Origin: Anaeromyxobacteraceae bacterium
Lineage (GTDB): Bacteria; Myxococcota; Myxococcia; Myxococcales; Anaeromyxobacteraceae
DNA: 64,000 nucleotides
Direction of reading: 5' to 3'
Assembly: GCA_047602405.1 (NCBI GenBank)
Contig: JASGHJ010000002.1
Span: 1,952,001-2,016,000 of the forward strand
Shown here: piece by piece, positions 24,401 through 30,123 of the stretch
Layout: every line of letters starts with the position of its first letter
How positions within the stretch are numbered: the stretch's first letter is position 1
The notes under the pieces: model-generated
The model's database searches: none
What the model was told of the DNA's origin: nothing
The model's input: the letters and a program-made list of their open reading frames with translations, nothing else
Translations under genes and position numbers: made by a program

Positions 24401-25997
24401 ATTCCACCCCGACGAGCCCCTCGACGAACCCGAGGCTCTGCTGCGAATCCACGTTGTAGAAGAGCCACGCGACCCGCGCGCGCGCGACCGCGGAGAGGCG
24501 CGGCGTCATCCGCCACCCCACCGCGCCGACGAGCCCGGGCGTGAGCGTGAAGAAGTGCTGTCGCGGGAGCGCGTCCTCGGCCGCGAAGCGCCGCGCGAGG
24601 TAGGTCGCCCCGAGCCTCAGGCCCGCCTGCGCGCCGAGGGCACCCCGGGTCCACTCCTTCCAGAGCCCGACGCCGGCGCCCACGAGCGCGAAGTCGAACG
24701 GCACCGAGACGCCGCCGCCGAGGCCGACCGCGCCCCTCCCGCCGCCGACCGCCGCGTCGAGCCCCCACACGAGCCCGTGGCCGAGGTCGTCGCGCGCCGC
24801 GAGCTCGAAGCCGCCGAGCGCCGCGGGCGGGAAGAGCCCGGTCTTGCCCTTGCCCTCGAAGAAGCGCTGCCCGCCGAGGCCGAGGAGCAGCGCGAACCGC
24901 GCGCCGCCGTAACCCTTCTGCGGATCCCGGTCGAGCGGCACGCGGTCCATCCGCGCGTCGTCCACCGGCACCGGCCCGCCCGAGACCTCGAGCCGCGCCA
25001 CGAGCAGCCCGCTCTCGTCCGGGAGCCGCTTCTTCACAAGGTACTTCCCGGGCGCGAGCGCGATGCGCCGCTCCGCGCCGGCCGCCTTCGCGACCTCCGC
25101 GACCGCGCGGCCCGCGCCGTCGAGCACCACGTAGAGCCCCTCCGTCGCGGCCGGCAGCACGACGCCGCCCCTCGCCGGCTCGAGCTCGGTGAGGACGACG
25201 TCGCCCGCGCCGCCGAGGTCGTACAGGAAGACCGGGTGCTGCACGCCCGCGGCCGAGGACGCGGTCGCCCCGACGGTGCGCGCGTAGGCGTAGGCGTAAG
25301 CCTCGGCGAGCGTGACGAGGCCGTCGCCGGAGGTGTCGGCGCCGCCCAGGAGCCCCGAGGCGAGGTGGTGGGTGAAGTAGCTCGCGCCGATCGCGTCGGA
25401 CTCCTGCGAGTCCTCGTCGGCCGACGACGAGGCCACGAGCACGAGGCCGCGCGGCCCGCCGGGCTGGGCGGTCTTCACGTCGAAGGTCGGCGCCGGGCGG
25501 ACCCCCTTCGCACGGACGATGGCGCCCGAGCGGCAGGAGTCGAGGAGGCCGATGCGCACGTCGGCGGGCGAGGACGCGAGCGCCTCGCGGAGCTCGTCGA
25601 GGGGGATGGCGCCCGTCCCGAGCCGGAGCGCGCCGTCGCGCGCGTGACCCGAGTAGTAGACGACGAGCACGGTGCGCTCGCCCGCGGCGGAGGCCCGGCC
25701 CGCGGCCTGGGAGAGCTCGGCGAGGGCGCGGCGGAACGCGGGGGCGCCCGCGGAGAGGAGAAGGCGCGCGTCCTCGGGCCGGACGCCGCCGACCCCGGTG
25801 AGGATGCCGTGGATGCGCCGGGCGTCGCGCTCGGCGTAGCGCAGGCGGACCGCGCCCGGCCCGCCGTCCGGCTCGCCCGCGACGAGCGCGAAGCGCCGGC
25901 CGGCCCCGCCATTCGCGGGCGCGGCGTGCGCCGGCGCCGCCAGGAGCCCCGCCGCGGCGAGGCCGAGCGCGAGCGCGACGGCGCGGGCGGACCTCAT
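24384..25997 (-). CDS. Exported caspase-like (peptidase C14) protein with probable C-terminal beta-barrel
   Basis: Signal peptide; RRFALVAG, LRYAERDA, His YYSGHA, Cys LDSCRSG, SYFTHHL..GL.G.AD..GDG.VTL.EAY; amphipathic beta C-terminus ending VGVEYALGD. Confidence 0.85.
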   Translation of the reverse strand: MRSARAVALALGLAAAGLLAAPAHAAPANGGAGRRFALVAGEPDGGPGAVRLRYAERDARRIHGILTGVGGVRPEDARLLLSAGAPAFRRALAELSQAAGRASAAGERTVLVVYYSGHARDGALRLGTGAIPLDELREALASSPADVRIGLLDSCRSGAIVRAKGVRPAPTFDVKTAQPGGPRGLVLVASSSADEDSQESDAIGASYFTHHLASGLLGGADTSGDGLVTLAEAYAYAYARTVGATASSAAGVQHPVFLYDLGGAGDVVLTELEPARGGVVLPAATEGLYVVLDGAGRAVAEVAKAAGAERRIALAPGKYLVKKRLPDESGLLVARLEVSGGPVPVDDARMDRVPLDRDPQKGYGGARFALLLGLGGQRFFEGKGKTGLFPPAALGGFELAARDDLGHGLVWGLDAAVGGGRGAVGLGGGVSVPFDFALVGAGVGLWKEWTRGALGAQAGLRLGATYLARRFAAEDALPRQHFFTLTPGLVGAVGWRMTPRLSAVARARVAWLFYNVDSQQSLGFVEGLVGVEYALGD

Positions 25998-26740
25998 CGC
26001 CGCCCCCGGGTGAGCGGCACGACCAGCACCTCGGCCTCGCGGTCGGGGGCCGCCGCGCCGACGCCGGAGGCCCCGAGGCGGCTCACCAGCGCCGCGCCGT
26101 CGATCGGGCGGTCGTCGAGCACCACCACGAGCTCGCCGTCGCCCTCGCCCGTCCACTCGAACGCGCCGGGCAAGGGGCCCTTCACGGCGGGGCCGGCGTA
26201 GACGAGGGCCGGGCCGTCGCGGTCGACGAGCGCGACCGCGGCGTGCGTGTGGCCGGCGGGGCCGAGCGCGACGCGCAGCGAGGCGCCCGCGGGCACCGGC
26301 TCGCCGGGCGCGAGGGCGCGCGCGCCGGCCGCGGAGGAGACGTGGAGCTCGGCGGTGGCGCCGCCCTTCGTGCGGATCCCGGGGGCCGGGTCGTCCCGGC
26401 GGTCGCGGAGCTCCCGGACGAGCGGCACCGCGACGACGGCCGCGAGGCCGGCGGCGAGCGCGAGCGGCGCGAGGCGGAGCGCGAGGCGCGGCGCGGTGCG
26501 GGGGCGCGGCGCCGGCGCGGCGAGGTGGTCGGCGACGCCGGCCGCGAAGGCGGGGAACGGCAGGGCGCGGGCGAGGTCGACCCGCTCGGCCTCGAGGACC
26601 CGGAGCGTCGCCTGGCAGCGGGCGCAGCCCTCGAGGTGGGCCTCGGCCCGGGTCCGCTCGTCGCCCTGCAGCTCGCCCGCCGCGAGGCGGCGGATGCGCA
26701 TCGCCGAGCAGGGCACCCCGGGGCCACCGAGCGACGTCAT
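25994..26740 (-). CDS. Zinc-finger (zf-HC2) transmembrane anti-sigma factor
   Basis: HLEGCARC (HxxxCxxC), single TM, extracytoplasmic domain; ATGA overlaps with both neighbours. Confidence 0.85.
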   Translation of the reverse strand: MTSLGGPGVPCSAMRIRRLAAGELQGDERTRAEAHLEGCARCQATLRVLEAERVDLARALPFPAFAAGVADHLAAPAPRPRTAPRLALRLAPLALAAGLAAVVAVPLVRELRDRRDDPAPGIRTKGGATAELHVSSAAGARALAPGEPVPAGASLRVALGPAGHTHAAVALVDRDGPALVYAGPAVKGPLPGAFEWTGEGDGELVVVLDDRPIDGAALVSRLGASGVGAAAPDREAEVLVVPLTRGRR

Positions 26741-27348
26741 GGCAGCTCCTCCGGGTCCGCGGGCAGCTCGACGTCGGGCATCGCCGCGGCGAGCGTGGCG
26801 CGTGCGGCGGCGAGGAACTCCTTGAGGCGCTTCCTCACCGTGGGCAGGCTGCGGCCGGTCTCGGCGGCGATCTCGGCCTGCGTCAGCTCGTCCACGAAGT
26901 ACAGCACGGCGACCTCCTGCGCTTCCCCGGGCGCGCTCCTGAGCAGCGCCCGCACGAGCTCCCTCGACTCCGGCTCGATGCCGCGTTCCTTCCGGTCGCG
27001 GGCCATCCGCTCGACCTCGTCCCGCCAGGCCGCCCGCGAGGCCCGGAGCACGTTGAGGCAGTGGTGCGTCGCCGCCCGCATCAGGTAGGCCGTGGGCGAC
27101 GCGGCGGTGACCAGCTCCGCCGTGCCCTTCAGGACCCGCGCGAACACCTCCTGCGTGGCGTCGCGCGCGGCGTCCTCGTCCTTGAGGAGGTACCGGCAGC
27201 GGCCGAACACCATGGCCGCGTGCCGCCGGTACAGGTCCTCGATCAGGTGGCCCGGGCGGGCGGCTTCAGCCGCGCCGGGGCCCGGAGCCCCGGCGGAGGG
27301 GCCGACGTGGTCGGCCTTTCCGCCGGGGATGACCGAGAGCCGGGGCAC
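26737..27348 (-). CDS. ECF RNA polymerase sigma factor
   Basis: Region 2 LYRRH...DATQEVF; region 4 LTQAEIAAETGRSLPTVRKRL. Confidence 0.92.
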   Translation of the reverse strand: MPRLSVIPGGKADHVGPSAGAPGPGAAEAARPGHLIEDLYRRHAAMVFGRCRYLLKDEDAARDATQEVFARVLKGTAELVTAASPTAYLMRAATHHCLNVLRASRAAWRDEVERMARDRKERGIEPESRELVRALLRSAPGEAQEVAVLYFVDELTQAEIAAETGRSLPTVRKRLKEFLAAARATLAAAMPDVELPADPEELP

Positions 27349-28940: not shown

Positions 28941-29192
28941 AGGCGCGCGTGGTGCGCCTCGACCGAGAACGTCAGCCCAATCAAGGTACTATTGGTGAAC
29001 GCTCACCAGGGCTCCAGGCCGGTCCCATCTTGGCGCTCCGGCGTCCCGCGCGCGCGGCGAAGTCACGAATGCGCGGGAAGACTACTCGAAACCCCGGGGG
29101 TTCCTCGCGCCGCGCTCGGCAGGCGCGACCATGGCGCCTGCCGGCGCGCCGGCCGCCCTCGCGGTACGCTCCGCCTCGAGAGGTACGCCCGG

Positions 29193-30123
29193 CTACCGCC
29201 GCGCCTTGAACCACGCGAACGTGCGCGCGAGGCCGTCGGCGATCGAGACCTCGGGGCGCCAGCCGATGGCCTTCGCGGCGAGCGACGGGTCGATGCAGGA
29301 GCGGGCCTGCTCGCCGAGGCGCGCGGGCGCGTGCTCCGGGCGCTGCTCGACGCCCGCCGCGCGCGCGAGGTGCGCGTGCAGGGCGAGCACGTCGGTCTCG
29401 ACGCCGGTGCCGACGTTGAGCGGGCCGTCGTGGCGCCTCTCCGCGGCGAGCAGGTTCGCGCGGGCGACGTCTCCCACGAAGACGTAGTCGCGGGTCTGGC
29501 GGCCGTCGCCGTAGACGGTGCACGGCTTCCCGTCGAGCAGCTTGCCGCAGAAGATCGCGACGACGCCGGCCTCGCCGTGCGGGTCCTGGCGCGGGCCGTA
29601 GACGTTCGCGTAGCGGAGCGCGGCGAAGGGGACCTCGTAGCCGGCGCGGAAGACGCCGAGATACAGCTCGCTCGCGGCCTTGCTCGCGCCGTAGATCGGA
29701 GATCGGCGCCTGGCGCTCGGCCTCGGGGGTGGGGATGGGCGCGCCGTCGCCGTAGGTCGCCCCTCCCGACGAGGCGAAGAGCACGTGCTCGAGCCCGCCC
29801 GCGGTCACCGCGGCCTGCATGAGGTTGAGGAGCCCGCCCACGTTCACGTCGGCGTCGTGGCGCGGGTCGCTCATCGAGCGGCGCACGTCGATCTGCGCGG
29901 CGTGGTGGCAGAGGACCTGCGGGCGCTCCTTCGCCACGATCTCGGCGGCGGCGGCGCTCCGGACGTCGACCGGGTAGAAGCGGGCGCCCGCGGGGACGTT
30001 CTCGCGCTTGCCCGACGAGAGGTCGTCGAGGATCGCGACGTCCCAGCCCGCGGCGAGGAAGGTGTCGGCCACGGTCGAGCCGATGAAGCCGGCGCCGCCG
30101 GTGATGAGGATCCGCCTCGCCAT
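29193..30123 (-). CDS. NAD-dependent epimerase, UDP-glucose 4-epimerase-like (apparent +1 frameshift at ~29698)
   Basis: TGGAGFIGS, HHAAQIDVRRS, ASSGG; after removing one base YGASK, RYANVYGPRQ, QTRDYVFV. Confidence 0.88.

Follow-up and report, generated by a model that had tools for sequence, protein, structure and literature searches.

Regulated intramembrane proteolysis of anti-sigma factors is carried out by DegS and RseP on RseA and by PrsW and RasP on RsiW: a site-1 cut in a single-pass anti-sigma is followed by a site-2 protease and release of the sigma factor. The known site-1 proteases are, to our knowledge, inner-membrane serine or metallo enzymes that are shared genome-wide. Here we describe a locus in a 64,000-nucleotide window of an Anaeromyxobacteraceae genome (assembly GCA_047602405.1, contig JASGHJ010000002.1, positions 1,952,001 to 2,016,000) that appears to follow the same logic, but in which each extracytoplasmic function (ECF) sigma factor has its own cysteine protease, predicted to reside at the outer membrane. 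The cassette consists of five tightly packed minus-strand genes encoding lipoprotein A, the sigma factor, an anti-sigma, a caspase-fold (C14) protein, and lipoprotein B. From the conservation of a basic-Gly pair at two places in the caspase and at one in the anti-sigma stalk, we predict that the cassette is a variant of regulated anti-sigma proteolysis, a reading that is well supported, and that the caspase-like protein is probably a dedicated site-1 protease that cuts the stalk after Lys125.

Several described systems resemble this cassette in part. Operons of sigma-70 factors and metacaspases have been reported for Myxococcus xanthus, Anaeromyxobacter, Haliangium, Sorangium, Ralstonia, and Fibrobacter (Asplund-Samuelsson 2012, PMC3501461). 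Those operons, four of which in M. xanthus hold a metacaspase and a sigma factor, very probably belong to the same family, but the accessible part of that account names no anti-sigma, barrel, motif, or mechanism. The DdvA-DdvS pair of M. xanthus likewise has a zinc anti-sigma domain, a single helix, RseP as the second step, and a proposed cut of the periplasmic linker by a caspase-fold protease (PMC11506125). DdvA, however, carries the CHAT domain itself and its self-cut is hypothetical (PMC11506125), whereas the window has no CHAT domain fused to its anti-sigma in the DdvA-type TPR-CHAT manner; the anti-sigma has 248 residues and a DUF4384 cap, and the protease is a separate gene product, a C14 protein on a predicted outer-membrane barrel. 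Type III CRISPR modules (Csx29/Csx30, CalpL/CalpT, and SAVED-CHAT/PCaspase of Haliangium) also use a caspase-fold protease to control a sigma factor by cutting, and PCaspase is activated by cleavage (bioRxiv 10.1101/2023.06.23.546230). Those modules act in the cytoplasm in response to RNA or cyclic oligoadenylate, whereas the window caspase, with its signal-peptide-like start and barrel, is predicted to be exported and membrane-spanning; no sensor domain was found in Pfam or NCBIfam, and no search for nearby cas genes was made. Single-pass anti-sigmas with a zinc domain and DUF4384 are known from group ECF25, which includes Deltaproteobacteria, Spirochaetes, and Fibrobacteres (Casas-Pastor 2021, PMC7826278). 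The window's cassette resembles ECF25 in its anti-sigma architecture, and we found no mention of a caspase in the accessible text of that work. Nothing on this cassette appeared in the accessible parts of PMC8999054 and PMC6061681, and no paper on the motif or a cleavage mechanism was found in the literature searched, which leaves most subscription journals outside its coverage. The operon has been known since 2012; the shared basic-Gly motif is new relative to the literature searched.

Counts for orthologous loci refer to the best 80 of 138 confirmed loci, in which 74 anti-sigmas were scored and Anaeromyxobacter are the nearest named relatives. The wider set holds 336 distinct caspases in three clades (252 in the main clade, 73 in the second, and 11) and 284 upstream anti-sigmas. 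An initial annotation of the window had pointed to VRAKGV after the catalytic Cys (25500-25517), to a K-G site ahead of a barrel-like region (24909-24926), and to IRTKGG in the anti-sigma (26360-26377), and all three were confirmed on the minus strand. K164 lies 9 residues past C155, and the pre-barrel segment reads DPQKGY, with K361-G362 immediately before the barrel. The stalk motif follows the hydrophobic helix by about 15 residues and precedes the first strand by 4, and these are also the median distances.

The same annotation had taken R-x-K-G to be common to the caspase and the anti-sigma, and only the basic-Gly part of that claim stood. R-x-K-G follows the catalytic Cys in 80/80 orthologous caspases, but it occurs in 0/80 at the pre-barrel site, where the actual motif is D-P-x-K-G (80/80). 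In the orthologous stalks, Lys is present in 74/74, K-G in 71/74, and R-x-K-G in 63/74. Family-wide, an Arg two places before the basic residue was found in 226/252 main-clade caspases, in only 198/284 anti-sigmas (70%), and is mostly absent from the second clade; because of this, R-x-K-G was rejected as a universal code and the true core is [K/R]-G. The co-conservation in both families that had been suggested as a check was borne out, since site 1 carries K or R in 334/336 caspases, with Gly next in 332/336, and the stalk column carries K in 234, R in 45, M in 4, and P in 1 of 284 anti-sigmas (K/R in 279/284), with Gly next in 272/284. At site 2, the residue is basic (K or R) in 243/252 caspases of the main clade and 71/73 of the second, and the site is retained where the soluble part ends, both in caspases that continue with a barrel and in those that continue with a hydrophobic helix. 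The main clade uses Lys, and its sister, the second clade, mostly uses Arg at all three places and includes a Lys subgroup. Sites 2 and 1 of the second clade read R/R in 57 caspases, K/K in 6, and are mixed in 4; strict matching between these two sites was rejected on 25 K/R cases in the main clade.

Chance would yield K-G at about 0.003 per residue, a rate taken from long open reading frames (ORFs) of the window's genome as a proxy set, or in about 4% of 14-residue stalks. Among 150 library representatives gathered with a motif-free profile, 10 of which were too short for scoring, K-G fell within 15 residues before the domain in 124/140, versus 33/700 control windows. The anti-sigma of the window has 2 lysines in total, and K125 is retained throughout the scored orthologues amid neighbours that vary in length and sequence; K-G is one of 5 dipeptides conserved (90%) in these proteins. 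By these counts, all three motifs are conserved far beyond chance.

Membership of the protease in C14 is supported by a match to PF00656 above cut-off, the caspase fold, and the His-Cys dyad. Its AlphaFold model (40 sequences, mean predicted local distance difference test [pLDDT] 79, low confidence at the N-terminus) comprises a signal-peptide-like N-terminus, a caspase domain (34-271), a beta-sandwich (278-353), and an 8-stranded OmpA-like barrel (367-535). OmpA, NspA, Ail, and OmpX were the best Foldseek matches, followed by caspases and yeast Yca1 for the front part, and a single-sequence PDB search with the caspase gave no match. A hydrophobic N-terminal stretch precedes the domain in 249/268 scorable caspases. 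Eight-stranded barrels of the OmpA type have their N-terminus in the periplasm, and a signal peptide together with such a barrel would place the protease domain there. Residues 157-185, the linker that holds site 1, have a pLDDT under 50 and are predicted to be disordered, and site 2 occupies a short coil directly before barrel strand 1. Near-invariant D58, D153, and E199 form a predicted acidic S1 pocket for Arg or Lys. They resemble D365, D462, and E500 of MALT1, which bind P1 Arg (PMC4626109), the equivalence being one of position rather than of superposition. Non-animal C14 members prefer Arg or Lys, type II metacaspases process in the post-Cys linker, and the orthocaspase MaOC1 requires self-cutting for activity (PMC5756287). 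A search for pocket residues that tell K- from R-type enzymes returned clade markers only. An EF-hand-like loop inside the caspase domain has profile matches to EF-hand proteins, and calcium may gate activity through it.

The anti-sigma has the features of class I zinc anti-sigmas, namely an N-terminal zinc domain, one membrane helix, and a coupled ECF sigma gene. Its zf-HC2 domain spans residues 20-43 and is followed by a hydrophobic helix at about 90-108, the stalk at 116-129, and a DUF4384-type beta domain at 130-243, which Pfam called as DUF4384 in 7/16 aligned members. The AlphaFold model agrees: the zinc domain is helical, a single long hydrophobic helix (90-115) comes next, and coil at 116-129 leads into the beta domain; residues 123-125 have a pLDDT under 50. 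The anti-sigma profile matched 8rlz (DdvA) best in the PDB (E 0.002), with further matches to ChrR and RsiW, and Foldseek with the model gave no match at E 0.001. Complex prediction for the caspase domain and anti-sigma residues 108-248 returned a score of 0.00 and was uninformative either way.

The stalk motif tends to go with the protease. Across five genomes, a caspase gene immediately follows 37/43 anti-sigmas matched by the motif-free profile (coordinates read by eye), and an anti-sigma profile match was found in 0/20 genomes that had no caspase match. The loss test, which drew on 71/85 profile matches from the genus of the window together with outliers in other families, found the motif (K-G, R-G, or R-S) in 58/58 anti-sigmas beside a caspase. 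Among the 16 with no adjacent caspase, 10 are motif-free, often with the whole stalk gone, 5 retain it, and 1 is ambiguous. Mapped on a tree, the motif changes 5 times, 3 of them on well-supported branches within the genus, and all changes fall in caspase-less lineages; these account for 29% of the branch length (12.5% when only the genus is counted), and the crude odds of the pattern are about 0.002 either way. This tree left out 9/82 rows, namely five that are not anti-sigmas (L370, L373, L376, L442, and L456), the truncated L401, L375 at a contig end, L446 with a broken caspase behind it, and L433. The last of these, which keeps K-G with no caspase behind it, is counted among the 16, and its inclusion would raise the estimate of about 0.002 slightly. 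In two genomes with motif-less anti-sigmas, one being a complete genome, the only caspase is a distant one. Because the motif is lost mainly where the protease gene is absent too, the protease likely cuts the stalk, and we consider the predicted cut at K125 by the neighbouring caspase quite probable. Motif-less DUF4384 domains are still 63-93% identical between genomes, and the fold therefore does not need the motif. The loss test thus argues against a folding role but does not separate cutting from docking. Eight conserved caspase-less anti-sigmas (L368, L413, L425, L426, L372, L448, L451, and L452) have DUF4384 almost directly on the membrane helix, and anti-sigmas of this kind must be controlled another way.

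Partners also tend to use the same basic residue. By alignment column, caspase and anti-sigma read K/K in 226 pairs, R/R in 42, R/K in 8, and K/R in 3, with 4 Met and 1 misaligned, such that 268/279 partners match. The stalk carries Lys beside 226/230 Lys-type caspases and Arg beside 42/52 Arg-type caspases, and this near-strict use of Lys in the former and mixed use in the latter would fit strict versus relaxed specificity. The match is consistent with the proposed cleavage but unproven, as it is not significant after tree correction.

We propose that a signal at the outer membrane, received by barrel loops, the lipoproteins, or calcium at the EF-hand-like loop, would trigger self-processing at K164-G165, and cleavage at this site is rather likely. 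With K164 at a distance of just 9 residues from C155, self-processing would probably occur in trans. A cut at K361-G362 would free the soluble protease from the barrel and allow it to cross the periplasm. A protease anchored in the outer membrane is unlikely to get to a cut site close to the inner membrane, which would give site 2 a purpose as the release point, a role that we lean toward. Cleavage of K125-G126 would remove the DUF4384 cap, and RseP would degrade the remaining stub and thereby release the ECF sigma factor. Degradation of a capless anti-sigma by RseP is described for M. xanthus (PMC11506125). The suggestion in the initial annotation that a single specificity could serve both auto-activation and anti-sigma cleavage survives in modified form. 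Co-conservation, the intact dyad, an acidic pocket suited to Lys or Arg, the placement of site 1 and the stalk in low-confidence coil, and loss of the stalk motif only without an adjacent caspase all favor it, but the code is [K/R]-G, the sister clade mostly has R-G at all three sites, and the K/R match falls short of significance once kinship is taken into account. The feature itself is real and strongly conserved, and the predicted cleavage is a hypothesis, if a well-supported one.

A number of observations weigh against this model. Fungal type I metacaspase 7qp0 also carries STKG after its Cys, and type I metacaspases are described as lacking processing at the post-Cys linker (PMC5756287), as is MALT1, whose linker stays uncleaved (PMC4626109). 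Within the second clade, no column near the pocket distinguishes enzymes of K type from those of R type, and site 2 is Arg in 25/239 Lys-type main-clade caspases. Five anti-sigmas (L374, L431, L433, L378, and L379) keep the motif with no adjacent caspase, although L378 and L379 have one 3-7 kb away. The labels of the loss test were assigned by hand, and its sign test gave p 0.25-0.5, with too few pairs. The K/R tree test covered 120/128 thinned rows, in which site 1 was assigned by pattern (wrongly in one row); it shows just 5 changes of the caspase state, and about 2/4 independent pairs agree with 0 opposing (p 0.5). Four anti-sigmas (L295, L343, L348, and L349) have Met-Gly instead of Lys-Gly beside a caspase with an intact dyad; site 1 of those caspases is altered, and their specificity has possibly shifted. 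Finally, one anti-sigma/caspase pair (L457) has no adjoining sigma gene.

The motifs could also serve for docking rather than cutting, with the basic residues occupying the acidic S1 pocket as pseudo-substrates, the linkers holding the protease off, and the stalk tethering or inhibiting the protease, so that signalling would proceed by dissociation or by a cut elsewhere. Docking would explain the conservation, the K/R matching, and the loss with the caspase equally well, site 1 is very near the catalytic Cys, and the Met variants beside intact caspases could bind uncut. The near-invariant Gly after the basic residue, however, is what a scissile bond would favor, and a barrel-tethered protease could hardly reach the membrane-proximal stalk unless released. 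Protease inhibitors, moreover, usually carry a feature that blocks cutting. We regard docking as unlikely. A little less probable still is that cutting of the sites takes place constitutively as the proteins mature, or is done by a different periplasmic trypsin-like protease, with the pieces staying associated until a signal arrives, as happens in self-cleaving anti-sigmas, and the caspase acting on other targets. Anti-sigmas that are processed constitutively and whose products stay associated are known (PMC11506125), and L374, L431, and L433 keep the motif with no adjacent caspase, but the loss of the motif tracks the loss of the neighbouring caspase, and a general protease would not impose the Lys and Arg preferences seen beside Lys-type and Arg-type partners.

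Least probable, in our view, is that three unrelated structural motifs resemble one another by coincidence, each K-G being a turn or cap at a domain edge. Each K-G does adjoin a domain boundary, the fungal metacaspase linker holds a similar STKG, and K/R matching is not significant after tree correction. Disorder is nevertheless predicted at the post-Cys and stalk sites, and DUF4384 domains that have no motif are still conserved from genome to genome. A turn would tolerate a change of Lys to Arg, yet Lys stands in the stalk beside 212/214 main-clade Lys-type caspases, and at the same loci neither the sigma factor nor either lipoprotein has a basic-Gly pair at 90% conservation.

For most bacterial caspase homologues no substrate is known, and discussion of them has usually centred on roles as death proteases. 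If the cleavage model is true, one large family of these proteins would have an identified target, three cut sites defined to the residue, and a function in envelope signalling that is unrelated to cell death. The model would also add a further kind of site-1 protease, cast DUF4384 as a protective cap, and perhaps account for the act-operon genes downstream of actC. More tentatively, with a probability that we place somewhat below even, the cassettes would form a widespread and so far undescribed class of trans-envelope signalling, in which a barrel-borne caspase is both receptor and switch. Such a caspase would cleave itself at two basic-Gly sites, depart from the outer membrane, cross the periplasm, and use the same code to cut its own anti-sigma; myxobacteria would have up to about 20 parallel Lys- or Arg-type channels, and one sigma-less copy would be wired into the act operon.

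The act operon of M. xanthus controls C-signal production, and its actD gene reportedly has a timing phenotype. Family anti-sigmas and one orthologous caspase are named 'ActD' or 'ActD-like' in public records. Compared with actD and the gene after it (Gronewold and Kaiser 2001, as cited in PMC4877007), the window cassette belongs to a different subfamily, as paralogues within a sigma cassette. At L457:5585-12866, GGDEF, sigma-54 activator, and epimerase-GNAT genes precede an anti-sigma/caspase pair, and a sigma gene is absent; we take this order to be actABC-like. K-G is intact at site 1 and in the stalk of this pair, and L458, a relative of that locus, has a sigma gene. No mention of act genes was found in PMC2853523 or PMC6791715.

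The caspase is present in 106/151 Myxococcota genomes searched, with up to about 20 such cassettes in one genome, and the anti-sigma domain profile matches 7476 clusters. The genome of the window has six sigma/anti-sigma/caspase cassettes, and K-G occupies both site 1 and the stalk in 6/6. In the five further cassettes (loci L081-L085 of genome G000), the C-terminal parts and neighbours differ, and the L082 caspase has R-G at site 2 and a longer C-terminus with repeats. The gene order of the window is constant in orthologous loci as far as the contigs extend, and its sigma gene overlaps the anti-sigma start by 4 nt. Coordinates are given in Table 1.

Table 1. Genes and residues of the cassette, with positions counted from the first letter of the window
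Feature	Position	Strand	Supporting observation
Lipoprotein A, 309 aa	27358..28287	(-)	Lipobox-like LLGAC; first gene of the cassette
ECF-type sigma factor, start codon uncertain	26737..27348	(-)	Sigma70_r2 and r4_2; TIGR02937 sigma70-ECF above cut-off
Anti-sigma-type protein, 248 aa	25994..26740	(-)	zf-HC2 E 7.9e-6; DUF4384; AlphaFold model
Anti-sigma stalk motif R123-T-K125-G126	26363..26374	(-)	Predicted site-1 cut between K125 and G126
Caspase-fold (C14) protein, 537 aa	24384..25997	(-)	Peptidase_C14; AlphaFold; Foldseek
Span of predicted acidic S1 residues D58, D153, E199	25401..25826	(-)	D/E 336/336, D 334/336, E 336/336
Catalytic His118	25644..25646	(-)	336/336 caspases
Catalytic Cys155	25533..25535	(-)	336/336 caspases
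Site 1, post-Cys linker R162-A-K164-G165	25503..25514	(-)	Predicted self-processing site; 80/80 orthologues
EF-hand-like loop D221-E232 inside caspase domain, possible calcium site	25302..25337	(-)	D221 325/325, E232 324/325 in two large clades
Site 2, D358-P-Q-K361-G362, between soluble part and barrel	24912..24926	(-)	Predicted release site; 80/80 orthologues
Lipoprotein B, 317 aa	23447..24400	(-)	Lipobox-like GAGC; overlaps caspase stop

The two flanking lipoproteins are paralogues with about 25% identity and share W-G-P and C-W motifs. Pfam and NCBIfam searches gave no family match for either, and both are candidates for a sensor or an output. A scan for sigma-70 promoters and terminators, which does not cover ECF promoters, found none. 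The caspase of the window has a third basic-Gly pair, R183-G184 (25446-25451), at the end of the site 1 linker; it is found in 71/80 orthologues with K and R mixed and could be a second linker cut or merely a strand start. Elsewhere, a caspase-like gene at L386:2522-3808 is without the His-Cys dyad and lies among genes that are presumably type VI secretion parts, and P0125, an anti-sigma-like protein of 758 aa, has at least 4 tandem DUF4384-type repeats and no stalk motif. In the window, a sugar-epimerase-like ORF (28981-30123) shows an apparent frame shift near residue 140, either a real lesion or a sequence error.

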